The notes beneath the pieces were generated by a model, which searched no databases, was not told where the DNA came from, and was given only the letters and a program-made list of their open reading frames with translations. From IMG/VR virus record IMGVR_UViG_3300033143_002031, positions 64,001-128,000 of that record: a stretch of DNA of 64,000 nucleotides. One strand, written 5' to 3'. The first letter of the stretch is position 1; each line of letters opens with the position of its first letter. Of this stretch, positions 25,489 to 61,854 are shown in pieces. The stretch comes from a virus. The position numbers were made by a program, and so were the translations under genes.

Positions 25489-25563
25489 TGGTGACCTGGA
25501 CGGGACTCGAACCCGCGTTTCCCGGCTTGAAAGGCCGGAGTCCTTCCTGTAGACGACCAGGCC
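25489..25563 (-). tRNA. tRNA-Glu(TTC)
   Basis: anticodon arm CCGGC CTTTCAA GCCGG; TTCGA T-loop; CCA. Confidence 0.92.
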
Positions 25564-25565
25564 GA

Positions 25566-25640
25566 GGGAGCCCCCGGGCGGAATCGAACCGCCTCCTCCG
25601 GAGTACGAAACCGGCACGCCACCTTTTGCGCCTCGGGGGC
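25566..25640 (-). tRNA. tRNA-Thr(CGT)
   Basis: acceptor GCCCCCG/CGGGGGC, U73; loop TTCGTAC. Confidence 0.75.
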
Positions 25641-25641
25641 C

Positions 25642-25717
25642 TGGAGCCCACGTCGGGAGTCGAACCCAAAAACTCCTGCTTACAAGGCAGGCGCTCCGCC
25701 ACCGGAGCCACGCGGGC
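25642..25717 (-). tRNA. tRNA-Thr(TGT)
   Basis: CCTGC CTTGTAA GCAGG; CCA. Confidence 0.92.
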
Positions 25718-25742
25718 AGGCTGCGACGATCGAGCATCTTCG

Positions 25743-25816
25743 TAGTGACTCTGAGGGGAATCGAACCCCCATTGCCGGATTGAGAGTCCGGTCTCCTACC
25801 GTTAGAGGACAGAGCC
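25743..25816 (-). tRNA. tRNA-Glu(CTC)
   Basis: CCGGA CTCTCAA TCCGG. Confidence 0.9.
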
Positions 25817-25936
25817 GAGCGGCATCCCCCTTGTACCTAGCAAAGGGGGCGTGCCCACACCCCGAAAGGGGCTCGGTCCAACGACCGATGAGACGCAGCT
25901 AGGAGCGCCGTGCGCGCACGAGAGGCCGAAGCCCCA

Positions 25937-26011
25937 CGGTGCCGATCACGGGAGTCGAACCCGTCTCTCCAGGATGGCGACCTGGCGTCTTCCCACGTAG
26001 ACTTGATCGGC
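25937..26011 (-). tRNA. tRNA-Gly(GCC)
   Basis: CCAGG TCGCCAT CCTGG (C33). Confidence 0.8.
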
Positions 26012-26012
26012 A

Positions 26013-26100
26013 TGGCGGCGAGCGGAGGTCTTGATCCCCACGCCTTGTGAGCGCGCACCGATTAGCAGCCGGGCTCGGGCTCCTGCCCAATTCACTCGCC
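26013..26100 (-). tRNA. tRNA-Ser(GCT), atypical D and T arms
   Basis: loop CTGCTAA; long variable arm; G73; CCA. Confidence 0.85.
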
Positions 26101-26106
26101 AAACTC

Positions 26107-26193
26107 TGGCGGCAGACGGAGGTCTTGATCCCCACTCCTCTCAGAGCGCACCGCTTTCGAGGCGGGCTCGGGCTCCTGCCCAATTCATCTGCC
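26107..26193 (-). tRNA. tRNA-Ser(CGA), atypical D and T arms
   Basis: loop CTCGAAA; long variable arm; CCA. Confidence 0.85.
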
Positions 26194-26277
26194 AGGTGCC
26201 CGCATGGCTGCACGGGCGACACCGCACCCCCACACGGGCGCGCTCCGGCCCCTCATACGGGATAATAGGGAGCGCAA

Positions 26278-26363
26278 CAGCGGCAGACGGGTGACTCGAA
26301 CGCCACGCCTCTCAGCGCGCACCGCCTTCCAAGCGGGCCTGGTCCCTGACCAGTTCGTCTGCC
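26278..26363 (-). tRNA. tRNA-Ser(GGA)
   Basis: loop TTGGAAG; long variable arm. Confidence 0.8.
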
Positions 26364-26365
26364 AG

Positions 26366-26451
26366 TGGCGGAGGGCGGAGGTCACGATCCCCACACCTCT
26401 CGGTGCCTGTCGCTTTCAAGACGATGGCGAGCCCTGCTCGCTTCGCCCTCC
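26366..26451 (-). tRNA. tRNA-Ser(TGA), atypical D and T arms
   Basis: loop CTTGAAA; CCA. Confidence 0.82.
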
Positions 26452-26620
26452 TCGCTTCAAGCTCCTCGATCCATCTCGCGAGGACGTGAACCCCAGCCAA
26501 GGCATGGTCTGGAGGGATACGTGTGTCGCGATTCCAGTTACGGCAGATGGATTCGAGAGCGATCTTGGCTCGTCTGATGTCGTCTATCTCAGGAGGCATC
26601 CTGAGACCGGCAGTATATCA

Positions 26621-26694
26621 CGGTCGGGCACCGGGGAGTCGAACCCCGCGCCTCCGGTCCCCCAGACCGGCGTCTCACCCCGAGACTAGTGCCC
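26621..26694 (-). tRNA. tRNA-Pro(GGG)-like, 6-nt anticodon loop
   Basis: acceptor CGGGCAC/GTGCCCG, A73; CCGGT CTGGGG ACCGG. Confidence 0.7.
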
Positions 26695-26731
26695 GGTGTG
26701 CCCCCTCCGAAGAGGGGACGAGAAAACTCGA

Positions 26732-27295
26732 TCAGTCGGACTCCAGAGCCCCGTGCCAGTAGACCCACGAAGCCCACTGGTCTGGCAAGGAATCACTCGC
26801 GTCGATGTGGAGAGCGACGACCGGCAGCGAGCGCGGCTTCACGGGCGTCCTCTTCAGGCGCATCCCCGCTTGCTGCGGCGTCCGGTCCCGCTTCCGATCA
26901 TTGCATGGGTAGCAGGCGGTGACGATGTTCTCCCAGACCGTCTTGCCGCCCCTCGACCTCGGTGTTACATGGTCGTAGTTGAGCTTACGGGTGGACAGCC
27001 TCTTCCCGCAGTACTGGCAGGTCCAGTTGTCCCGCGTCAGCACGTTCATGCGCGAGAACCGAACCGCCTTCTTGCGCGCGACCGCCCGCAGGAGCCGGAT
27101 GACGGCCGGCATCTTCAGCACGAACGTCCAGCCGTACTCCTTCGCCCGATCTGCCTGATCGGGGGTCATGAGGGCCTCATCGTAGCTCTCTACGACTTCG
27201 GCCTTGTGTTGGAAGAGCAACGAGACGGCCCGTTGCCAGGACACGATGCGGTGGGGTTGGTACCCCAGGTCCAGGACCAAGCATTGGCTAGACAT
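26732..27295 (-). CDS. HNH endonuclease (McrA-like)
   Basis: RDNWTCQYCG, DHVTPRSRGG, NIVTACYPCNDRK; AAGGAGG RBS. Confidence 0.92.
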   Translation of the reverse strand: MSSQCLVLDLGYQPHRIVSWQRAVSLLFQHKAEVVESYDEALMTPDQADRAKEYGWTFVLKMPAVIRLLRAVARKKAVRFSRMNVLTRDNWTCQYCGKRLSTRKLNYDHVTPRSRGGKTVWENIVTACYPCNDRKRDRTPQQAGMRLKRTPVKPRSLPVVALHIDASDSLPDQWASWVYWHGALESD

Positions 27296-27330
27296 GACCG
27301 CCTCCTTTCTTGGTGCGAAAACTCTACCAG

Positions 27331-27413
27331 TGCGAGCGGGGGGAGTCGAACCCCCATGACCTCGCGGCCGGCGGGTTTTGAACCCGCTGCGTCTACCATT
27401 TCACCACGCTCGC
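27331..27413 (-). tRNA. tRNA-Leu(CAA)
   Basis: GCGGG TTCAAAA CCCGC; long variable arm. Confidence 0.92.
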
Positions 27414-27419
27414 GCGGAG

Positions 27420-27503
27420 TGCCCGCTGCGGGACTCGAACCCGCACGCCCGCACGGGGCGCCCGGGTTTAGGCCGGGTGCGTCTACCGTTTCACCAAGCG
27501 GGC
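27420..27503 (-). tRNA. tRNA-Leu(TAA)
   Basis: CCCGG CCTAAAC CCGGG (C33). Confidence 0.85.
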
Positions 27504-27505
27504 AA

Positions 27506-27592
27506 CGGTGCTGCGGACAGGAGTCGAACCTGCACGACCTCTCGGCCACTGGCCCCTCAAGCCAGCGCGTCTACCAATTTCACCACCGCAGC
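27506..27592 (-). tRNA. tRNA-Leu(GAG)
   Basis: CTGGC TTGAGGG GCCAG. Confidence 0.92.
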
Positions 27593-27630
27593 AGGCACAA
27601 AACACAACTTTCAAAGTTATGTTTTGACAT

Positions 27631-27716
27631 CGGTGCCAGGGAGAGGAGTCGAACCTCCACGACCTTTCGGCCACTCGGGTCTGAGCCGAGCGCGTCTACC
27701 ATTTCACCACCCTGGC
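27631..27716 (-). tRNA. tRNA-Leu(CAG)
   Basis: CTCGG CTCAGAC CCGAG. Confidence 0.92.
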
Positions 27717-27717
27717 A

Positions 27718-27791
27718 TGGTGGGCGATGAGGGAGTTGAACCCCCGACTCTGGTGTGTGGGACCAGCATCTTTCCGTTCGACCAATCGCCC
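27718..27791 (-). tRNA. tRNA-Val(CAC)
   Basis: CTGGT CCCACAC ACCAG (C33); A73; CCA. Confidence 0.8.
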
Positions 27792-27800
27792 AGAAATCTC

Positions 27801-27877
27801 TGGTCGGGCAGAAGGGATTTGAACCCCCGACCTCCGCGTCCCGAACGCGGCGCGCTACCAGGCTGCGCTACTGCCCG
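27801..27877 (-). tRNA. tRNA-Pro(CGG)
   Basis: CCGCG TTCGGGA CGCGG; CCA. Confidence 0.93.
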
Positions 27878-27960
27878 AATGAGGGGCCGACCGCACACTC
27901 GCTTTGCCCAGGCCGTGAAGCCTCCATCCTCCTACCGGGTCAGGCCAGCCCGACGCCCCT

Positions 27961-28032
27961 CGGTCGCACGGGAGAGACTTGAACTCTCGCGGTCACGGAT
28001 ATGAGCCGTGCCTCCCACCTTGGGACCGTGCG
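27961..28032 (-). tRNA. tRNA-Met(CAT), elongator-type (or Ile2)
   Basis: CACGG CTCATAT CCGTG; fully paired acceptor stem. Confidence 0.75.
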
Positions 28033-28109
28033 GAAGCGGGGGGAGGATTTGAACCTCCGATCTTTTGGTTATGAGCCAAATGGGGACGACCAGACTCCCC
28101 TACCCCGCA
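28033..28109 (-). tRNA. tRNA-Met(CAT), initiator-like
   Basis: 1:72 mismatch, GCGGGG/CCCCGC acceptor, TTCAAAT T-loop; only two G-C pairs next to the anticodon loop. Confidence 0.75.
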
Positions 28110-28185
28110 GGAGCCCTTGGCGAGACTCGAACTCGCAACTCCCACCTTCGGAGGGTGGTGCCCGTTCCAATCGGGCCGCAAGGGC
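28110..28185 (-). tRNA. tRNA-Arg(CCG)
   Basis: CCACC CTCCGAA GGTGG. Confidence 0.88.
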
Positions 28186-28201
28186 ATGGTAAACTCTGGG
28201 T

Positions 28202-28348
28202 ATGGCAAAACGTCAGTACGAGAAGCCGACCTTCAAGCACGTCAAGGGGTTCGCCTTCATCATGCGCTGCACCCCGTGCCCTGATTGCAGGAACGGTGTG
28301 ACCTGCCATCGCTGTAGTTGCTGCCACGGCTGCCACGGCTGCCACTAG
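28202..28348 (+). CDS. 48-aa Cys/His-rich peptide
   Basis: MAKRQYEKPTFKHVKGFAFIMRCTPCPDCRNGVTCHRCSCCHGCHGCH*; fills the spacer between two tRNA-Arg genes; below the ORF-track cutoff; no clear SD. Confidence 0.6.
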   Translation: MAKRQYEKPTFKHVKGFAFIMRCTPCPDCRNGVTCHRCSCCHGCHGCH

Positions 28349-28420
28349 CCTCCCCACGAGGACTCGAACCTCGATCTCAAGATCCGTAATCTTGCGTGAT
28401 GTCCATTTCACTATGGGGAG
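28349..28420 (-). tRNA. tRNA-Arg(ACG)
   Basis: CAAGA TTACGGA TCTTG. Confidence 0.88.
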
Positions 28421-28422
28421 AG

Positions 28423-28494
28423 ACCAGCCGGCGGGACTCGAACCCGCGATGCACGGGAGTAGAAGTCCCGCTCCCCTCCAGTGGGGTCGGCTGG
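28423..28494 (-). tRNA. tRNA-Arg(TCT)
   Basis: CGGGA CTTCTAC TCCCG. Confidence 0.82.
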
Positions 28495-28495
28495 A

Positions 28496-28570
28496 CGGAG
28501 GCCCCGGGGGGAGTCGGACCCACCGATTCCTGGTTTGCAGCCAGGCGTCTTTCCGTTTGACTACGGGGCC
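28496..28570 (-). tRNA. tRNA-Cys(GCA)
   Basis: CCTGG CTGCAAA CCAGG; U73. Confidence 0.88.
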
Positions 28571-28626
28571 AGTAGCTCGTCCGGCTTCACCGGCACAGAG
28601 CGGACGGCGGGACTCGAACCCGCCTC

Positions 28627-28700
28627 TGGTGCAGGTAGGGGGAGTCGAACCCCCGATTCGAGGGTGGAAACCTCGCGTCTTTCCGTTAGACCACACCTGC
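28627..28700 (-). tRNA. tRNA-Gly(TCC)
   Basis: CGAGG TTTCCAC CCTCG; CCA. Confidence 0.9.
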
Positions 28701-28706
28701 GAAACA

Positions 28707-28779
28707 GCGATCTGTGCGGGACTCGGACCCGCTTCTCCGGGCTCGGCCCGGTGTTCGTCCTATGAACTACATCGACCGC
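28707..28779 (-). ncRNA. tRNA-like RNA with a 5-nt anticodon loop
   Basis: T-arm GCGGG TCCGAGT CCCGC; stem CCGGG CCGAG CCCGG; GCGGTC/GATCGC closing stem. Confidence 0.5.
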
Positions 28780-28845
28780 TGCCTACTCGCGCCCGCTCTT
28801 CTCAGGGTACTGGTCGACGCTTCCCCTGAGCCTCCTGGGAGCTTT

Positions 28846-28921
28846 CGGAGCCCCGAGCGGGGATCGAACCCGCCATCTCCGCCATACCAAGGCGGCGAAT
28901 CACCACTGATTCTTTCGGGGC
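28846..28921 (-). tRNA. tRNA-Thr(GGT)
   Basis: CCGCC TTGGTAT GGCGG; U73. Confidence 0.88.
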
Positions 28922-28975
28922 AAGCGCCCCCTACCCGCTGCAAGGCTAGGAGGGAATCGAACCCTCGTAGGGGAC

Positions 28976-29049
28976 TGTTGGACACGGAGGGAATCGAACC
29001 CTCATCTCCGGCTTGCAAGGCCGGCGTCTTCCCGTTTGACGACGCGCCC
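28976..29049 (-). tRNA. tRNA-Ala(TGC)
   Basis: CCGGC CTTGCAA GCCGG; G3:U70. Confidence 0.9.
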
Positions 29050-29124
29050 GTGTCCAGGTGAGGCAAGCTCGGGAATCAGGTTGCGCTACCCTCGTCCCAA
29101 CGCAAGGCGCGTCCTCACCCAGAG

Positions 29125-29197
29125 TGGATCGTGCGAGAGTTGAACTCGCGACCTCCTGCATGCGAAGCAGGTGCTCTCCCAACTGAGCTAACGACCC
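29125..29197 (-). tRNA. tRNA-Ala(CGC)
   Basis: CCTGC TTCGCAT GCAGG; G3:U70. Confidence 0.92.
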
Positions 29198-29200
29198 AAA

Positions 29201-29310
29201 CTGCCGGCGCTCTTACCACTTGAGCTACGAAGGCCGTTTTAGGGCCTCCGACAGGACTCGAACCTGCATCTCCGGACTCGCCGACGCTCTACCACTTGAG
29301 CTACGGACAC
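29201..29310 (-). ncRNA. tRNA-and-a-half (pseudo-tRNA plus a duplicated 5' half)
   Basis: two near-identical D-arms, one T-arm, no intact anticodon loop. Confidence 0.55.
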
Positions 29311-29352
29311 CAATTGGCGACCGACGGGACTCGAACCCGCACCTTCGGCTAG

Positions 29353-29425
29353 TGGAACACCGGGGAATCGAACCCCGAACCTCCTGGCTGCCAGCCAGAC
29401 GCTCTCCCAGTTGAGCTAGTGCCCC
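29353..29425 (-). tRNA. tRNA-Ala(GGC)
   Basis: TCTGG CTGGCAG CCAGG; G3:U70. Confidence 0.92.
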
Positions 29426-29426
29426 A

Positions 29427-29501
29427 TGGTGGGCGTGGAGGGATTTGAACCCCCGATCTTCTGCGCGTCGAGCAGACGTCTTGCCACTTGACCACACGCC
29501 C
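29427..29501 (-). tRNA. tRNA-Val(GAC)
   Basis: TCTGC TCGACGC GCAGA (C33, G37); CCA. Confidence 0.85.
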
Positions 29502-29510
29502 GAAAACTTC

Positions 29511-29585
29511 TGGTACCCCGAGTGGGAATCGAACCCACGACCTGAGCCTTATAAGGACCCGTCTCTGCCACTGAGTTACCGGGGC
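29511..29585 (-). tRNA. tRNA-Ile(TAT)
   Basis: GGGTC CTTATAA GGCTC; A73; CCA. Confidence 0.85.
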
Positions 29586-29630
29586 TCCGACTGCTCGGAG
29601 CCATGTATTCGTTCCATCGGAACCTCCTTC

Positions 29631-29705
29631 TGGTGGGGCGAGAGGGACTCGAACCCCCGTCAACCGATTCATCAGACCGGCGCTCTGCCACTGAACTACC
29701 GCCCC
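29631..29705 (-). tRNA. tRNA-Ile(GAT)
   Basis: CCGGT CTGATGA ATCGG; CCA. Confidence 0.88.
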
Positions 29706-29706
29706 A

Positions 29707-29782
29707 TGGAGCCCTCGGCGGGAGTCGAACCCGCAACCTCCGGAGTAGGAATCCGACGCACGTCCAGCCGTGCTACGAGGGC
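29707..29782 (-). tRNA. tRNA-Arg(CCT)
   Basis: TCGGA TTCCTAC TCCGG; CCA. Confidence 0.9.
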
Positions 29783-29783
29783 A

Positions 29784-29861
29784 TGGGGTGATCGACGGGA
29801 CTCGAACCCGCTAGGGCCGGGATCACAACCCGGTGCCGCGACCGCTTTGGCTTCGACCACC
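29784..29861 (-). tRNA. tRNA-His(GTG)
   Basis: CCGGG TTGTGAT CCCGG; G-1:C73; CCA. Confidence 0.9.
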
Positions 29862-29868
29862 ATACTTC

Positions 29869-30017
29869 TGGCGACTCTCCCAGGAATCGAACCCGGGCCT
29901 CCGAGACAAGGCTCCTCTCATGTACCCGCTTTGCCCGGCGGTGCGAGGATCGTTGCTTGGAATCGCAGGGGACAACCCACGACCCGCTCGGTGTTCTGCC
30001 ACTACCACTATCGAGCC
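29869..30017 (-). ncRNA. tRNA-like RNA with an 81-nt structured insert replacing the anticodon loop
   Basis: D-arm-like 5' part, CCGAG/CTCGG stem, canonical T-arm, G73, CCA. Confidence 0.6.
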
Positions 30018-30020
30018 GTA

Positions 30021-30105
30021 TGGCTCCCCAGGGAATCGAACCCCTTGCGCGCCACCACACATAATAGCGCGATCGGGTTACAGCCGATCGTGTGGAAAGG
30101 GAGCC
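30021..30105 (-). tRNA. D-armless tRNA-Tyr(GTA)-like RNA
   Basis: GATCGG CTGTAAC CCGATC; long variable arm; TTCGATT T-loop; 9-nt linker instead of a D-arm. Confidence 0.65.
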
Positions 30106-30112
30106 AAACTCA

Positions 30113-30190
30113 AGGTCCGCGTGGACGGATTTGAACCGCCGTTATGCCGGCTCCCAAAGCCGGTGTCTGACCAGACTAGACGACACGCGG
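30113..30190 (-). tRNA. tRNA-Pro(TGG)
   Basis: CCGGC TTTGGGA GCCGG. Confidence 0.9.
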
Positions 30191-30191
30191 A

Positions 30192-30267
30192 TGGTGGGGA
30201 GCCTCGGAATTGAACCGAGATTCGTGGATCTTCACTCCACTGTCCTACCGGGTTAGACGAACTCCCC
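30192..30267 (-). tRNA. tRNA-Phe(GAA)
   Basis: GTGGA GTGAAGA TCCAC; CCA. Confidence 0.88.
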
Positions 30268-30268
30268 A

Positions 30269-30342
30269 TGGCGGGACCGACCGGACTCGAACCGGCTTTA
30301 CCAGCGTGACAGGCTGGCGCCTTTCCTAATGGCTACGATCCC
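30269..30342 (-). tRNA. tRNA-Asp(GTC)
   Basis: CCAGC CTGTCAC GCTGG; G73; CCA. Confidence 0.92.
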
Positions 30343-30345
30343 AAT

Positions 30346-30541
30346 GCACCTCCGGCCAGGGCGTATCGTGGCGCGGGACGCTTCATGCGTCCCTCGGAGG
30401 CGCGGCGGGCGACCTGAGAATCGAACTCAGCGGACAGCCGGTTTTGGAGACCAGCCCGCGTACCCTGCGCGTCACCCAAAGGACACCTCCGGCCAGGGCG
30501 TATCGTGGCGCGGGAAACTCTCTCGTCTCCCTCGGAGATGC
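30346..30541 (-). repeat. two copies of a ~58-nt three-way-junction element (30346..30403, 30483..30541)
   Basis: 32 identical nt (30347..30378 = 30484..30515); the variable hairpin is paired in both copies. Confidence 0.8.
30403..30477 (-). tRNA. tRNA-Trp(CCA)
   Basis: CTGGT CTCCAAA ACCGG; G73. Confidence 0.85.
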
Positions 30542-30615
30542 AGCACCGACCCTTTCGGGATAGTGCTCCGCCCGTTGACGTTGCTCCCTTTCGGGTCTGA
30601 CGCCTCGGTCTCGGT

Positions 30616-30688
30616 TGGTACGGCAGGAGGGAATCGAACCCTCACACATCGGCTTCAAAGGCCGAGTGGCTACCCTGAGCACCACCGT
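30616..30688 (-). tRNA. tRNA-Gln(TTG)
   Basis: TCGGC CTTTGAA GCCGA; CCA. Confidence 0.85.
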
Positions 30689-30689
30689 A

Positions 30690-30768
30690 TGGCTGGGGTG
30701 GAGGGAATCGAACCCCCACGATGACCCGGAGTCAGAGTCCGGCGCTCTACCAGTTGAGCTACACCCCA
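30690..30768 (-). tRNA. tRNA-Gln(CTG)
   Basis: CCGGA CTCTGAC TCCGG; G73; CCA. Confidence 0.92.
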
Positions 30769-30787
30769 ATAGCGAGGAGATTGACAA

Positions 30788-30862
30788 TGGGGGGTCCGGG
30801 GGGACTCGAACCCCCACCTGACAGAGTAAGAATCTGCTACGCTCCCATTACGCCACGGACCC
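30788..30862 (-). tRNA. tRNA-Lys(CTT)
   Basis: GCAGA TTCTTAC TCTGT; CCA. Confidence 0.88.
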
Positions 30863-30865
30863 ACA

Positions 30866-30942
30866 GGGCTGGCCAGGCTGGAGTCGAACCAGCAACCTTC
30901 CGGGTAACAGCCGGATGCTTCTTCCTACTGAGCTTCTGACCA
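30866..30942 (-). tRNA. tRNA-Asn(GTT)
   Basis: TCCGG CTGTTAC CCGGA. Confidence 0.9.
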
Positions 30943-30943
30943 A

Positions 30944-31019
30944 TGGCGGGCCAGGTTGGAGTCGAACCAACAACCATCGGACTAACAATCCGCCGCTCTT
31001 CCATTAGAGCTACTGACCC
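30944..31019 (-). tRNA. tRNA-Asn(GTT), second copy
   Basis: GCGGA TTGTTAG TCCGA; CCA. Confidence 0.88.
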
Positions 31020-31121
31020 ATGATGACCCCGGAGCCTGGGTGAGCCCCGAGGTCGAAGATGCTCGATTGTCACAGACCGAACAGCCGTCGCTGGGAGGTT
31101 CGCGAGAGAACCTCCTTCCAT

Positions 31122-31197
31122 CGGTGGGGGCAACAGGACTTGAACCTGCTCAATCCGGGGTAAAAGCCCGGGACCCGTCCAGTCGGGCGCTACCCCC
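31122..31197 (-). tRNA. tRNA-Lys(TTT)
   Basis: CCGGG CTTTTAC CCCGG; first tRNA of the array. Confidence 0.88.
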
Positions 31198-45820: not shown

Positions 45821-46660
45821 ATGGGGGACATGACCGTCGAGAGGCTTCCCAACGACGCCTTCACCCCGAAGGGCGACCTCATCTACGAGGACGTGGCGGA
45901 GCACCTCCCGCTGTTCGACAAGATCGGGTTCAACGCGAACCTCATCCTCGTCGGGCCGAAGGGGGTCGCCAAAACTCTCTCCATCGCGTCCTGGGCTCAC
46001 GAGAACGATCACCCGATCGTTACCTTCGATTGCAGTGAGGACATCCGCCGGGCGCACCTGCTCGGCATGTTCACGCTCAGGGGTGATGAGAGCCCGTTCA
46101 TCCTCGGTCCGCTCCCCACGGCTATCGAGGTCGCGAACGAGGTGGGCCGGTGCATCCTCTGCCTCGAAGAGATCAACGCCCTCACCCCTTCCGTCCAGAA
46201 GATGCTCAACGCCATCGGAGATTACCGGCGGCGGATCGAGGTCCCCGAGTGCAAGCGGGTCTTCGAGTTGAAGAATGGGGCGCAACTCTGGCTCTGCGGG
46301 ACCATGAACACCTCGGTCTACGGTGGCGTCTACGAGTTGAACGAGGACTTGAAGAGCCGCTTCCGCATGCTGCCGGTGGAGTACCCCTCGAAGGGCGAGG
46401 AGACGCGCATCCTGAAGAAGGTCGTCGGCGGCGGGGTGAAGAAGGAGACGATCAAGGACGTGCTCACGCTCGCGCACGAGACGCGCCAGAAGAGCCTCGC
46501 CTACTCGCTGTCCCCGCGCGACACGGTGCAGATCCTCGAAGACATCGGCTACTGCGGGCTGGAGGACGCGCTGCGCCTCGCTTCCGGGAAGTTCGAGGGC
46601 CAGGACCGAGACTATTTCCTCACGAGGGTGCAGTCGGTCTTCGGTATCACACTCAAGTAG
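45821..46660 (+). CDS. MoxR/CbbQ/CobS-like AAA+ ATPase
   Basis: Walker A GPKGVAKT, Walker B LCLEEIN, sensor TMN, LKSRF. Confidence 0.9.
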   Translation: MGDMTVERLPNDAFTPKGDLIYEDVAEHLPLFDKIGFNANLILVGPKGVAKTLSIASWAHENDHPIVTFDCSEDIRRAHLLGMFTLRGDESPFILGPLPTAIEVANEVGRCILCLEEINALTPSVQKMLNAIGDYRRRIEVPECKRVFELKNGAQLWLCGTMNTSVYGGVYELNEDLKSRFRMLPVEYPSKGEETRILKKVVGGGVKKETIKDVLTLAHETRQKSLAYSLSPRDTVQILEDIGYCGLEDALRLASGKFEGQDRDYFLTRVQSVFGITLK

Positions 46661-46670
46661 CGGGGGCGCC

Positions 46671-48638
46671 ATGTCTGACATCGACGTTGACGCCCTCCTG
46701 AAAGCGGGCGTGGATTCATCCCAGAAGGCGATGGCGTACAAGACGGTCGACGTCTTCGCCGGGATAGTGGAGCGAAAGCTCTGGCTCAAGGACGCTCGGG
46801 ACGGACAGCCGAAGACCAACGGCTACCTGATCGAGGTGCCCTTCATGCACCCCCGCGCGTACCAGTACACCGAGCACGAGATCAGCCACATCCTGTTTCA
46901 GAGCGACTTCCTGGCGAAGCAGAAGTTCGTGGAGGAGTACTCCGAAAAGATCGGGCAGGTCGCCAAGGGGGCCGGGACGCCGATCAACGAACGGATGCTC
47001 CGCGCGGGCCTGGACGGCATCATAGGCGTGCTGGACGACGAGCGGGTTATCTCGCTCTGGGGGCTCCTGTACAAGGGCTCCGAGGCCATCATGCGGCGTA
47101 TGAAGGCGGACGAGGTGAAGCCGTATCTGGGTATGGTGCACGAGGACTTCATCTCGCTTCTCATCTGTGTGGCGAGCGGCAACGATGTCCCACCGGGAAA
47201 GCTCGACCGATTCGTCCCGTACATGCGCGAGGCGCTCCGCAAGGTGCACCTCCGGGACTACTTCGGCTGCCTCGTGGCCGCGAAGTGGCTCATCGTGCAA
47301 CTGGTGAGCGAGATCATCCGGGAATCGAGGGGTGAGGAGCCCCCTCCAATGCCCTCATTCCAGCCCGGGGCCGGGCAGGACGGTCAGTTCGGGGCCAAGA
47401 ACGCCCCTGACGGCCTTCCAGACGACTCAGAACCCTCCGGGCCGCCATCCATGCCCTGGGAGGCCGGAGACGCTCAGGAGGGCTCTGAGACCCCTTCTGG
47501 GGGCCACGGAGGGGATGCTTGGGAGCCCCCGAAGGTCCAGGCCGGTCTGGAAGCCCGTTCCAAGGCCATGCAGGACACGATTGACAGGCTCGGGGTCGCC
47601 CCGAAAGACCTCACGAGCGAGGTCGGAGAGTCACGCTACAAGAAACGCGGCGAGGAGACCAAGGCCAACCGTCGGGCTCGGGCAGCGATCAACGCTGACG
47701 TGAAAGACGGCGACAAGTTGGAGACGGCCCTGGAGATTTCTTCGGAGCAAATGATCCAGATCGTGGAGAAGGCCCGCCACGCGACCAAGAATACCCCGAA
47801 CCACGACGATAAGATTCGGCAGGAGAGCTACGCCAAGGTGGTCTTCAAGGACGTGATGCCCTCCCCGCACAGCGACCCGCACGCCAGGATCGAGGACGAG
47901 GACGAGGACACGGTGCGGCGCCTGCGCGCGATGTTCCACCGGGTCATAGGGCGCCGCGTGAACACCTTGGAGGACTCTGGGTCGCAAGTCGACATTCCGG
48001 CTCTTATTGAGCGCCGGATGACCGGGGAGCCCCTTCCCGTCTTCCGCGTGGACAGCTTCGGCCGGGGCTTCAAGACCGTCGTCCTTGTGGACCGCTCCAT
48101 CTCCATGAAAGGGAAGCGAACGGCGCAGGCCGAGAGAGCTTGCAGGATCATCTCTCGGGCGCTGGACTTCCCGTTCGTCGCGCGCACCGTTTGGGGCTTC
48201 CAATCGTGGAAGGACGGCGAGGTAGACATCACACGATTCAAGGCCGGGCAGGAGGTCTTCGAGTCGGAGGCAGCGGCAGTGGGCGGCCACACGCCCTTGC
48301 ACACGGCTATCCGGGTCGCGCTCCGAGAGTTGGAGGACGGCACGGATAAGAAGCACCTGTTCGTCATCTCGGACGGCTTCCCTGTCTTCGCTCGGCGTGA
48401 CGGCGCGCACTTCGGGACCCAGACGCTCATGGCGTTCGTCCGGAGCAACGTCATGACTGCTCGCTCGAAGGGCATCGGGGTCACTGGGGTGATGATCGGC
48501 CACGACATCAAACCCAAGGGGATGTCGTTCATGTTCGGATCGTCGAAGTTCTGGCGGATCATGGGGGAGGACTCCTTCGGCAACGACCTGGTGCAACTCG
48601 TCACCGGGGCGTTTGTTGAGTACCTCCGGACGAGGTGA
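46671..48638 (+). CDS. vWA-domain partner (CobT/NorD-like)
   Basis: N-terminal HEISH; C-terminal MIDAS DRSISM, HTPL, ISDG. Confidence 0.85.
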   Translation: MSDIDVDALLKAGVDSSQKAMAYKTVDVFAGIVERKLWLKDARDGQPKTNGYLIEVPFMHPRAYQYTEHEISHILFQSDFLAKQKFVEEYSEKIGQVAKGAGTPINERMLRAGLDGIIGVLDDERVISLWGLLYKGSEAIMRRMKADEVKPYLGMVHEDFISLLICVASGNDVPPGKLDRFVPYMREALRKVHLRDYFGCLVAAKWLIVQLVSEIIRESRGEEPPPMPSFQPGAGQDGQFGAKNAPDGLPDDSEPSGPPSMPWEAGDAQEGSETPSGGHGGDAWEPPKVQAGLEARSKAMQDTIDRLGVAPKDLTSEVGESRYKKRGEETKANRRARAAINADVKDGDKLETALEISSEQMIQIVEKARHATKNTPNHDDKIRQESYAKVVFKDVMPSPHSDPHARIEDEDEDTVRRLRAMFHRVIGRRVNTLEDSGSQVDIPALIERRMTGEPLPVFRVDSFGRGFKTVVLVDRSISMKGKRTAQAERACRIISRALDFPFVARTVWGFQSWKDGEVDITRFKAGQEVFESEAAAVGGHTPLHTAIRVALRELEDGTDKKHLFVISDGFPVFARRDGAHFGTQTLMAFVRSNVMTARSKGIGVTGVMIGHDIKPKGMSFMFGSSKFWRIMGEDSFGNDLVQLVTGAFVEYLRTR

Positions 48639-59508: not shown

Positions 59509-61854
59509 GTGGATGTGACAGTCACAGGGTGGGCGTGGTTGCCCAAGGCGGACCTGACGCCAGACCAGATCGTGAACATGGAGCGCATGCTCACGGTTCA
59601 CCCGCAGAAGATCGGGGACTACCCGGGCGACGAGCCCCTGCCGATCCACCTGTATGCGAACGAGAGTGACCGCTTCGGCGTCCCCCGCGAGTTCTTTTTC
59701 AGCAATCGGCGTGCGACTCACAACATCGACCTCCAGGTCACAGAAGGATCTAAGGACTGGTGGCCGGCGGAGTTTGTCGGCCTCCTTCGGACGGAGCAGA
59801 AGACCGCTCTGAACGAGGTGGTGGCGATGTTCCGGGCCGGGCGGATGGGCGGGATCATCCAAGCCAAGCCGGGCTGGGGGAAGTGCCTGGGTATCGGAAC
59901 TCCCGTGCTCATGTTCGATGGAGCGATAAAGCCTGTCGAGGACATTCAAGATGGCGATCTTCTCATGGGGCCGGACAGCCGACCCCGCCGCGTTTTGTCT
60001 ACGACACGCGGCACCGGACCGCTATACGAGATCGTTCCGTTGCGTGGAGAGTCCTGGGTGTGCAACGACGCTCACATCTTGACTCTGGTTCACTCCCTGA
60101 CAGGAGAAGTACAGGATATTGAGGTGGGGGAGTACCTGAAGCTATCGAAGACGGAGCGGCATTACCTCAAGCAGTTTGCTCCGGAGCAAGGGGTCGACTT
60201 TCTCTCAGCCGAGCCACTTCTGCTGGACCCGTACTTTTTGGGGGTGTGGTTCGGGGACGGTACGAAGGGTGCGGACGAGGGGGTCTTGAGGAAGGTAGCG
60301 GTCACTAAGCGGGACGAAGAGATCAAGAAGCTGTGCGAGGATGTGGCGTCGAGGTACGGTCTCCATGTCCGCGTGGAAACTTCTGGAGGTACGCGGTGCC
60401 CTACCTACCATCTCACAACTGGCAGGACGGGAGGAGGCCGGAACGCGCTTCTCGATCTTTTGCGTCGTGTCGTGGGGGACGCATCTGAGGTCCCTCGTCA
60501 GTATCTCACCGCGTCCAGGTCGGATCGAAGGGCACTGCTCGCGGGTTTTTTGGACTCGGACGGCCACCTCAATAACGGTTATTTCGACATCGTGCAGAAG
60601 CGGCGCTCTTATGCGGAGGCCGTCATGTTCCTCGCCCGATCTCTTGGGTTTCGGGCGAGGGTGTCGGAGAAAATTGTACACGGGGAGGTCTACTGGCGCA
60701 TGGGTCTGTCCGGCGATTTCTCTACACTTCCCCTGCGTGTGTCCCGAAAGAAGGCCCCTCCCCGGCGACAGAAAAAGGTGCCTACTCGGACAGGGTTCGA
60801 TGTTCGTTTTGCGGGGACCGGGGCGTATGCGGGGTTTACGTTGGACGGGGACGGGCGGTTCCTCCTCGGAGATTTCACCGTGACTCACAACACGGTCGTG
60901 GCGCTGGCTATCGCTGCCGAGCTAGGTGTGCCTACCCTCGTCGTAGTCCACAAGGAATTTCTGATGGACCAGTGGACGGAGCGGATCGAGAAGTTCCTTC
61001 CGGCGGCGAAGATAGGTCGCGTCCAGCAAGACACCTGCGACTTCCGGGGCAAGACTGTGGTCATGGGCATGGTTCACTCCCTTGGAGGAGAGCAGCCCTA
61101 CCCTGAAGACCTGTGGGAGTGGCCGGGTTTGGTCATCGTGGACGAGGTGCACCGTATCGGAGCCCGCACGTGGGCTCCTGTTCCTCCGAGGTTCCAAGCC
61201 AAGTACCGCCTCGGATTCACGGCGACGCCCCGGCGCAAGGATGGCGCCGACGACGTGTTCTGGCAGCACATCGGTCCGATTATCTTCGCGGGGAAAGAGG
61301 AGCGATTGAAGCCCGTCGTCAAGCGAGTGTGGACCAAGTTCAAACTCGTGAAGACGGACCGCTTCAATCCGAATCTGGCCCCGAAGGCGCTCATCACTCG
61401 GTTCCTGGTCAAGAGCCGCTACCGCAACGATCTGATCGCGGAGCAACTCGTCTCAGCCTTGGAGGCGGGGAGGAAGATCCTTGTGCTGAGTGAGCGCTTG
61501 CAGCACCTACAGGACATGGAGTCGCAGCTTCGGAATATGTGGCCAGCGGTGGCCGGAGACGTTTCGATCGGTCAGTACGTCGGAGGTCGAACCAAGGTCC
61601 AACTCGAACGGTCGGCGCAGGCTAAGGTCATCTTCGCCACGTCTCAGTACGCGGCCGAGGGTCTGGACATCCCGGCGCTGGACACGCTGTTCCTGACCAC
61701 GCCAATGAGCGACGTGGAGCAGGCGGTGGGTCGTATTCAGAGGCCGCACCCGGACAAGAAAGATCCTATCGTGGTGGACTTCCGCGATGACTCGATTCCT
61801 ATGTTCGAGGCGATGGGTAGGAAACGAGAGAAGTTCTACACGAGGATAGCTTGA
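59509..61854 (+). CDS. SF2 helicase (Res III/UvsW-like) with intein
   Basis: PGWGK|T, DEVH, FTATP, FATSQ, QAVGRIQR. Confidence 0.92.
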   Translation: MDVTVTGWAWLPKADLTPDQIVNMERMLTVHPQKIGDYPGDEPLPIHLYANESDRFGVPREFFFSNRRATHNIDLQVTEGSKDWWPAEFVGLLRTEQKTALNEVVAMFRAGRMGGIIQAKPGWGKCLGIGTPVLMFDGAIKPVEDIQDGDLLMGPDSRPRRVLSTTRGTGPLYEIVPLRGESWVCNDAHILTLVHSLTGEVQDIEVGEYLKLSKTERHYLKQFAPEQGVDFLSAEPLLLDPYFLGVWFGDGTKGADEGVLRKVAVTKRDEEIKKLCEDVASRYGLHVRVETSGGTRCPTYHLTTGRTGGGRNALLDLLRRVVGDASEVPRQYLTASRSDRRALLAGFLDSDGHLNNGYFDIVQKRRSYAEAVMFLARSLGFRARVSEKIVHGEVYWRMGLSGDFSTLPLRVSRKKAPPRRQKKVPTRTGFDVRFAGTGAYAGFTLDGDGRFLLGDFTVTHNTVVALAIAAELGVPTLVVVHKEFLMDQWTERIEKFLPAAKIGRVQQDTCDFRGKTVVMGMVHSLGGEQPYPEDLWEWPGLVIVDEVHRIGARTWAPVPPRFQAKYRLGFTATPRRKDGADDVFWQHIGPIIFAGKEERLKPVVKRVWTKFKLVKTDRFNPNLAPKALITRFLVKSRYRNDLIAEQLVSALEAGRKILVLSERLQHLQDMESQLRNMWPAVAGDVSIGQYVGGRTKVQLERSAQAKVIFATSQYAAEGLDIPALDTLFLTTPMSDVEQAVGRIQRPHPDKKDPIVVDFRDDSIPMFEAMGRKREKFYTRIA
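59884..60891 (+). mobile_element. intein with LAGLIDADG homing endonuclease (336 aa)
   Basis: starts CLGIGTPV, ends FTVTHN before T; blocks YFLGVWFGDG and LLAGFLDSDG; inserted in Walker A. Confidence 0.95.

Follow-up and report, generated by a model that had tools for sequence, protein, structure and literature searches.

The spacer between two tRNA-Arg genes of a tRNA-rich phage very probably contains a genuine protein-coding gene, as judged from homology. The 48-aa open reading frame (ORF) that occupies this spacer was recognised as a member of a family of small Cys-rich peptides with an N-terminal Y-x-K-P leader and a C-terminal CRQCSxCHGCR motif. In bacterial and archaeal genomes, peptides of this family are encoded next to a PqqD protein and a radical SAM/SPASM (rSAM/SPASM) protein, and many unrelated phages carry the peptide gene alone. 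The window, that is, the whole stretch of 64,000 nucleotides that was analysed, comprises bases 64,001-128,000 of a 184,744-bp IMG/VR virus record with an estimated completeness of 88%, and has a GC content of 63%. The features of the locus and the components of the cellular cluster are listed in Table 1.

Table 1. Features at the ORF locus (positions in the window) and genes of the cellular cluster that encodes the related peptides
Feature	Positions	Strand	Remarks
tRNA-Arg(ccg)	28110-28185	−	Left border of the gap; ARAGORN and Rfam
Candidate extended -10 element TGgTAAACT	28187-28195	+	Ends 6 nt before the ATG; inference only
48-aa ORF	28202-28348	+	ATG at 28202, TAG stop at 28346-28348; by homology an orphan and divergent representative of the Y-x-K-P ... 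CRQCSxCHGCR precursor-peptide family
Leader motif Y6-E-K-P9-T-F11	28217-28234	+	From alignment A2; presumed PqqD/RRE docking strand (RRE binding inferred from adjacent PqqD genes)
Extra linker triplet C23-x2-C26-x2-C29	28268-28288	+	Absent from canonical members; partly in P0001
Core C35-x2-C38-x-C40-C41-H-G-C44-H-G-C47-H48	28304-28345	+	Family CxxCSxCHGC motif with one extra HGC unit and a terminal H replacing R
9-nt tandem repeat GCTGCCACG, 2.9 copies	28320-28345	+	Slippage-type duplication adding one HGC unit to the Cys ladder
tRNA-Arg(acg)	28348-28420	−	Right border of the gap; ARAGORN; Rfam end at 28349
tRNA missed by ARAGORN	29243-29310	−	Rfam RF00005, 40.7 bits
Cluster radical SAM/SPASM protein			About 350 aa
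Cluster PqqD (RRE) protein			About 100 aa; gene end overlaps the peptide start
Cluster peptide gene			Directly after PqqD; two copies in some loci
Cluster MBL-fold protein			About 1,035-1,200 aa
Cluster prenyltransferase/squalene-cyclase (SQHop)-like toroid			About 270 aa
Cluster AsnB-type asparagine synthase			Glutamine-dependent
Cluster GT4 glycosyltransferase			
Second rSAM gene			In some cluster loci only

The ORF fills a 162-nt gap (28186-28347) between the two tRNA-Arg genes. Its ATG is preceded by 16 nt and is the first possible start, since an in-frame TAA lies three codons upstream, and its stop codon abuts tRNA-Arg(acg) or overlaps it by at most 1 nt. The encoded peptide contains nine cysteines (positions 23, 26, 29, 35, 38, 40, 41, 44 and 47) and five histidines (13, 36, 42, 45 and 48), carries Y6-E-K-P9 in its leader and ends with CHG-CHG-CH. 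The GC content at the first, second and third codon position is 0.45, 0.53 and 0.82, respectively. A sequence-only reading of the locus had described the ORF with correct coordinates, length, YEKP leader, Cys and His counts, Cys positions (C40 completes the nine cysteines) and C-terminal end, and had rightly placed it in the spacer between two tRNA-Arg genes of the opposite strand. The same reading had called the peptide antisense. This is true relative to the tRNA array, but not for the phage as a whole, because the + strand holds at least 117 of its 126 confident protein genes and the overlap with a tRNA gene does not exceed 1 nt.

The tRNA array extends from 25,489 to 31,197 on the − strand and comprises 40 tRNA genes, 39 of which were called by ARAGORN and one more by Rfam. 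Most of them are separated by only 1-10 nt. In the gap at 28186-28347, ARAGORN and Rfam gave no tRNA or Rfam match on either strand, and the minus-strand RNA folded no better than shuffled sequences (z = 0.21), so that a tRNA or non-coding RNA in the gap was rejected. Many ORFs of 30-200 aa overlap the region. A minus-strand ORF of 198 aa (28100-28696) and the other overlapping ORFs cross tRNA genes and are unsupported. A gene for a 187-aa HNH endonuclease (HNH_5, 1e-16; 26732-27295, − strand) is located inside the array on the tRNA strand, 900 nt from the ORF, and suggests that mobile genes use the array as an insertion hotspot.

The array also includes two adjacent tRNA-Met(cat) genes (27962-28032 and 28032-28109, − strand) that have one base in common, a tRNA-Ile(tat) and two tRNA-Asn(gtt). 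Three further units, each about 90 nt long, begin at 26013, 26107 and 26366 (within 26013-26460, in the gaps 26012-26279 and 26364-26621). Their identity to the start of tRNA-Ser(gga) at 26280-26363 is 67-88%, and their first bases are TGGCGG, which corresponds to an encoded CCA end. These units were called by neither ARAGORN nor Rfam and are probably divergent or decayed type-II (Ser/Tyr-like) tRNA genes whose T-loop is odd; apart from them, the array lacks tRNA-Tyr and the remaining Ser isoacceptors. Elsewhere in the window, a ResIII-type helicase gene (59509-61854, + strand) is split by an intein with Hint and LAGLIDADG homing-endonuclease domains, and a gene pair at 45821-48638 (+ strand) encodes a CobS-like AAA_5 ATPase followed by a CobT-like VWA protein. 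The latter protein, of 655 aa, had no tblastn match in 50,697 phage records.

Taken alone, a 48-aa ORF proves nothing, because ORFs of that size are commonplace in DNA of 63% GC. When 1.84 billion cluster representatives were searched exhaustively with phmmer, five small homologues of 41-49 aa were found that aligned from end to end. The best match, P0001 (49 aa), was 55% identical over its full length with an E-value of 6.4e-8, whereas the sixth match, P0002, a 364-aa repeat protein, was discarded as spurious. A family HMM was then used that consisted of 35 members and excluded both the window ORF and P0001. Against the six-frame translation of the 184.7-kb phage record (3,904 segments), the ORF was the only significant match (E 6e-7, runner-up 0.69) and was aligned to model positions 1-41 of 42. 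The phmmer result and the independent profile together raise the ORF above chance. The family was reached solely through the exhaustive phmmer search: a word-indexed protein search and a viral scan with the single window peptide both remained without a match, and megablast and tblastn of the region and the peptide against the 50,697 phage records gave nothing useful. The exact window protein was absent from a collection of 15 billion proteins, which indicates that gene callers missed the ORF.

No Shine-Dalgarno sequence was found before the ORF, whereas most genes of the same phage have a strong one, and a two-hexamer sigma-70 promoter was not found upstream. The 21 nt upstream of the ORF include the 11-mer AGGGCATGGTA, which is present in identical form and at the same distance from the start in the otherwise unrelated locus L002, and both loci read TGGTAnnnT-N6-ATG. 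An extended -10 element in this position would place the transcription start on the A of the start codon and yield a leaderless mRNA, which is inferred without any RNA data. The pattern occurs four times in the window, compared to 0.23 expected occurrences. A general leaderless architecture of the phage based on TGnTAnnnT-N6-ATG was considered but is given little weight, since the pattern is enriched in the window but applies to only a handful of ORFs genome-wide.

A profile of the phmmer homologues retrieved 62 small proteins of 39-79 aa, and pattern scans with the C-terminal motif contributed a further 22 loci from GTDB genomes and 21 from IMG/VR contigs. The family comprises more than 60 members of 39-60 aa, which come from DNA of 29-67% GC with unchanged protein motifs. 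It is uncurated and was defined on an alignment of 37 sequences, termed A2. The N-terminal leader is basic and reads Y-x-K-P-x-[FLI], with Y6 and P9 invariant and K8 and F19 nearly so. The linker of about 20 residues is variable and occurs in two flavours, VKGxDF..., which is found in the window peptide, and KKExxMxFP.... The C-terminus CRQCSxCHGCR is nearly invariant and ends the protein. All 43 loci that were retrieved via the C-terminal motif alone also carry Y..P, and this leader motif is as invariant in orphan copies as in cluster copies, suggesting that a docking motif is under selection in the orphans too. Strong Shine-Dalgarno sites are present in many members of the family.

The window peptide keeps the conserved residues Y6, K8, P9, F11 and F19. 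In the core it keeps C35, C38, S39, C41, H42, G43 and C44, and these core residues except S39 are family-invariant. Its core deviates in having H-R in place of R36Q37, an extra C40, an extra HGC unit and a terminal H for R. In A2, the window peptide and P0001 are the outliers, with extra linker cysteines and an i,i+3 ladder of five rungs versus four. The additional rung of P0001 is an inserted Cxx unit, and that of the window peptide is the HGC unit from the GCTGCCACG repeat. In terms of the alignment, the window peptide is a divergent variant of the family, like P0001.

The family was not found in Pfam, NCBIfam, PHROGs or PADLOC, and the window peptide itself had no Pfam or NCBIfam match at E <= 10. 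When the 37 members were compared with curated models, only weak cytochrome-c-type matches appeared, which are due to the CxxCH motif; attachment of haem c through CxxCH was rejected, as there is no export signal or signal peptide. A search for fused or longer forms of the family produced only singletons of 87-166 aa without a recurrent extra domain, and these are most likely over-extended starts. Literature searches on the motif and on phage orphan RiPP precursors gave nothing specific to the family. AF2 modelling of the window peptide (mean pLDDT 66.6, pTM 0.27) predicted just two 3-residue strands and no confident autonomous fold, as would be expected for a precursor peptide.

All-against-all ORF clustering of the fetched loci revealed a conserved cluster of about seven genes around the peptide in 13-14 bacterial and archaeal loci. 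The genes follow each other in the sequence rSAM/SPASM, PqqD, peptide, large MBL-fold protein, prenyltransferase-like toroid, AsnB-type amidotransferase and GT4 (Table 1). The metagenome-assembled genomes (MAGs) that bear the cluster are labelled as Bacteroidales, Desulfobacterales and Deltaproteobacteria, Actinomycetota, Proteobacteria and Methanoperedens; an unclassified 10.6-Mb bacterium and a Woesearchaeote (fragment only) were also among them. The VKGxDF subtype, to which the window peptide is closest, also occurs inside such clusters (L013 and L015, whose PqqD genes were identified by eye). The best NCBIfam model for the cluster rSAM was TIGR04340, the enzyme of the ACGX system, with 204 and 193 bits against a cutoff of 400. 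A score of about half the cutoff argues that the cluster rSAM represents a new subfamily and not a member of the ACGX enzymes. Its nearest solved structures, MoaA and SkfB, matched at only about 4e-11, and the cluster PqqD gene showed a weak match to lasso PqqD chaperone models.

Genes of the defence type adjoin or interrupt several clusters: a MmeI/Eco57I type IIG enzyme, DUF1156 with HEPN_Swt1-DUF499, an NTP_transf_2/HEPN pair and an M78 peptidase. In two loci (L010 and L021), a gene for an N6_N4 DNA methylase is located inside the cluster between the peptide and the MBL gene. Neighbours of the restriction/modification and HEPN type were noted at L021:1082-4612 and L033:2327-8528. Other clusters adjoin genes for aconitase, RecJ or a tRNA methyltransferase. 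Of the GTDB species representatives to which the motif scan led, only about 13 had the cluster, and orphan copies are at least as numerous.

Outside the cellular clusters, the peptide occurs without a maturase in about 27 phage-like loci as well as in the phage of the window. When the six cluster proteins were searched with tblastn, no match was obtained at E < 1e-4 in the 27 phage-like loci (10 kb) or at E < 0.01 in the 184.7-kb record, and PF04055 was absent from that entire record. The sequence-only reading had noticed no maturase in the window, which now extends to the complete record. It had also read the ORF as a possible RiPP precursor carried by the phage, or as mimicking a host precursor, with a YxxP leader for RRE binding and a Cys core of the radical-SAM type, and suggested looking for homologues beside radical SAM/SPASM genes. 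What it had named as refuting this does not apply, and the microrepeat accounts for just one additional HGC unit. Such homologues were indeed found, directly after PqqD and rSAM/SPASM genes in cellular genomes, and this context supports the proposal, although neither modification nor expression has been demonstrated and the metal-binding alternative is not excluded.

The phage-like loci carry terminase, portal or endolysin genes and are unrelated to each other and to the phage of the window. Comparing the L002 phage contig with the phage of the window, the peptide locus alone matched. The orphan peptide gene adjoins or lies between terminase and portal genes in L036, L037, L040, L042, L046 and L011, and in one phage locus it is found directly 3' of the endolysin gene. 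In the viral contigs L040 (9998-10219) and L035 (4503-4783), the orphan gene is followed by a tRNA within 8-80 nt (Ser-tga and Trp-cca), which recalls the place of the ORF in the tRNA array of the window. A link between the family and tRNA genes was not upheld, since only a few orphans (L016, L035, L040 and L004) are beside tRNAs and most are not, and it was treated as an insertion-hotspot effect. The viral sequence L047:7600-7830 is about 95% identical at the nucleotide level to the cluster copy L021:6050-6285 over the peptide gene, its ribosome binding site (RBS) and about 40 nt of the 3' flank. The similarity begins inside the last codons of the PqqD gene, and the RBS of L021 is located within the PqqD end. 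This identity indicates that the precursor gene alone moved recently between a cell and a virus, in a direction that was not determined. We conclude that phages have repeatedly captured the peptide gene alone, and most phage copies retain the exact host core. The closest cultured relatives of the window's phage by DnaB are Pseudomonas phages with only 31% identity, too distant for a host call.

By analogy, the architecture of the cluster resembles the PQQ and mycofactocin systems more closely than antibiotic RiPP clusters. Like the PQQ pathway (PqqA, the RRE protein PqqD, the rSAM/SPASM enzyme PqqE and the MBL-fold protein PqqB), the family combines a tiny precursor with a near-invariant core and a leader containing K-P, and its cluster includes a PqqD-type protein, a SPASM radical SAM and an MBL-fold protein. 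In both cases phages carry the precursor gene alone; a lone PqqA precursor is encoded by viruses (Coutinho et al. 2020, PMC7678222). Unlike PqqA, however, the window peptide has no E-x3-Y core and does not match any PqqA model, its core being a Cys ladder, and the cluster adds an AsnB-type amidotransferase, a prenyltransferase-like toroid and GT4. Mycofactocin (MftA, MftB, MftC and MftF) provides a similar parallel with its short precursor of invariant extreme C-terminus, separate PqqD-like chaperone, SPASM rSAM and clustered glycosyltransferase, where modification of the family peptide is inferred. It differs in that the family peptide ends in CHGCR and not in GVY, the glycosyltransferase belongs to family 4, homologues of MftD and MftE are missing and the peptides are spread over many phyla and phages. 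The cluster rSAM matched TIGR03962 at 1e-29 to 1e-32, far below the cutoff.

The ACGX-repeat system (TIGR04340 rSAM/SPASM) shares with the cluster the best-matching rSAM model and a substrate with periodic cysteines. However, the period is 3 and not 4 in the family peptide, and the window peptide had no NCBIfam match at E <= 10, with 0 families from among the curated rSAM target peptides (ACGX, SCIFF and others). A basic N-terminal Y-x-x-P leader is likened to the leaders of ranthipeptides, sactipeptides, SCIFF and lasso peptides. Ranthipeptide, sactipeptide and SCIFF systems (PapA/PapB, CteA/CteB and SkfA/SkfB) also resemble the family in their Cys-rich cores and rSAM/SPASM maturases, but the cluster rSAM stays far below the PapB, StsB, SkfB and AlbA cutoffs. 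Lasso peptides differ in that the cluster has no lasso protease and the core no Asp or Glu acceptor. In contrast to antimicrobial RiPPs with hypervariable cores, the core of the family is invariant across phyla.

How the peptide may act was deduced from the cellular clusters, as there is no biochemical datum for any member of the family. Most likely, the cellular peptide would be bound by PqqD via its Y-x-K-P strand and the Cys ladder would be modified by the rSAM/SPASM protein; both steps are inferred. The docking of such a strand to an RRE rests on established knowledge of PqqD-type RREs. The phage ORF would then encode an orphan, divergent precursor consisting of a short basic Y-x-K-P leader, a variable linker and a C-terminal i,i+3 Cys ladder. 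Once produced in an infected cell equipped with the pathway, this peptide may dock on the PqqD/rSAM machinery of the host. That the window peptide engages the host pathway is an inference we favour with moderate confidence, while the host, the chemistry and the expression are unknown. The lack of a Shine-Dalgarno sequence counts against it, and the finding that orphans are at least as numerous as clusters is awkward for a strict dependence on a host pathway.

Engagement of the host machinery may have two outcomes. On the one hand, the phage peptide may supply substrate, in an auxiliary-gene logic as for viral pqqA. On the other hand, it may saturate or misdirect the pathway and so act as a decoy or in the manner of an antitoxin, an option made plausible by the restriction and HEPN genes that surround several clusters. 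Supply is favoured because most phage copies conserve the host core exactly, whereas titration or mimicry is favoured by the defence-island neighbours and the altered core of the window copy. We lean slightly towards supply over the decoy, and hold supply itself only as a tentative assignment. It remains possible that the window peptide may no longer be a substrate, because CRQ is changed to CHR and because of the extra Cys40, the extra HGC, the terminal H and the three extra linker cysteines. In its widest form the explanation would be that many unrelated phages, by carrying just the substrate peptide, take control in the infected cell of an rSAM/PqqD pathway that is widespread, uncharacterised and unvarying in its core, either by neutralising a defence or abortive-infection module through mimicry or by topping up a new peptide-derived cofactor or metallophore. 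The ladder of the window peptide, remodelled by repeat slippage, would then capture such a mimic while it evolves. This we regard as conceivable, yet doubtful.

As a sub-case of host-machinery engagement, the cluster could be a phage-defence or abortive-infection module that cannot fire when the phage peptide titrates PqqD/rSAM or replaces a labile host peptide. The defence-type genes around some clusters would agree with such a counter-defence decoy, as would the many unrelated phages with orphan copies, which is usual for anti-defence genes, and a non-productive binder would fit the altered core of the window peptide. However, the cluster components matched no PADLOC system beyond a generic rSAM similarity to pVip, and the housekeeping neighbours of other clusters do not point to defence. 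The exact host core in most phage copies, with L047 nearly identical to a cluster copy, is better explained by a true substrate, and phage copies are often located in late regions (terminase, portal, endolysin), whereas anti-defence genes are usually early. We therefore consider the decoy unlikely.

Alternatively, the peptide could be an autonomous small metal-binding protein that acts unmodified and without a maturase, holding Zn, Fe, Cu, Ni or Fe-S in its Cys/His ladder, for example as a metallochaperone, a redox buffer or a mini zinc-finger. The window peptide has nine Cys and five His in 48 aa, CxxCH occurs one to three times in the core, and such a composition does resemble metallothioneins and CxxCH haem motifs. 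In two phages the ladder has gained rungs through simple duplication of a unit, which is also how metallothionein-like repeats expand. The phage copies without a maturase within 10 kb, the abundance of orphans relative to clusters and the weak cytochrome-c matches drawn by the core CxxCH are also in line with a metal binder. The Y-x-K-P leader, however, is invariant in the orphans too and is hard to explain without an RRE-type partner, and the position of the cellular copies, immediately behind PqqD and rSAM, speaks for a peptide that is modified. No metallothionein or zinc-ribbon match was obtained in Pfam or NCBIfam, the only family matches being the weak CxxCH-driven cytochrome ones, and a signal peptide for haem c attachment is missing. 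The absence of a confident compact AF2 fold is a weak point against metal binding, since metals were not modelled. An unmodified metal binder is thus improbable. A non-functional chance ORF in a tRNA-operon spacer or decayed tRNA, with the Cys pattern as a by-product of the GCTGCCACG microrepeat, an origin of the pattern that the sequence-only reading had allowed for, can be given hardly any credence: its common size in 63% GC DNA, the missing Shine-Dalgarno sequence, the part of the Cys ladder within the 9-nt tandem repeat and the tRNA-like repeats in other array gaps are outweighed by the full-length homology in phmmer and family HMM, which largely refutes it, by an alignment that is not compositional, with a leader conserved though not Cys-rich, by the high GC3, the first ATG after an in-frame stop and the exact fit to the gap, by the absence of a tRNA/Rfam signal or unusual RNA structure, and by the fact that the repeat accounts for one extra HGC unit only, the CxxCxxCHGC ladder being the family motif.

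No description of the peptide family, of its cluster or of its broad distribution among phages was present in the curated libraries and the literature found, whereas a phage-borne lone precursor of an rSAM/PqqD pathway was already known with pqqA, the only documented parallel. For the phage of about 185 kb with its many tRNAs, our analysis adds a gene, real as far as homology can tell, that had not been annotated. It also exposes a peptide family and a radical-SAM/PqqD cluster of about seven genes that reach from Bacteroidales to archaea and are outside the curated libraries. Invariance of the core over such distances is what marks a cofactor-like or signalling molecule and not an antibiotic, and dozens of unrelated phages that keep the substrate gene alone say that the pathway matters during infection. 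Should the cluster prove to serve defence, the phage peptides would add substrate mimicry as a new type of counter-defence. If it makes a cofactor or a metal binder, they would represent a new auxiliary metabolic gene.
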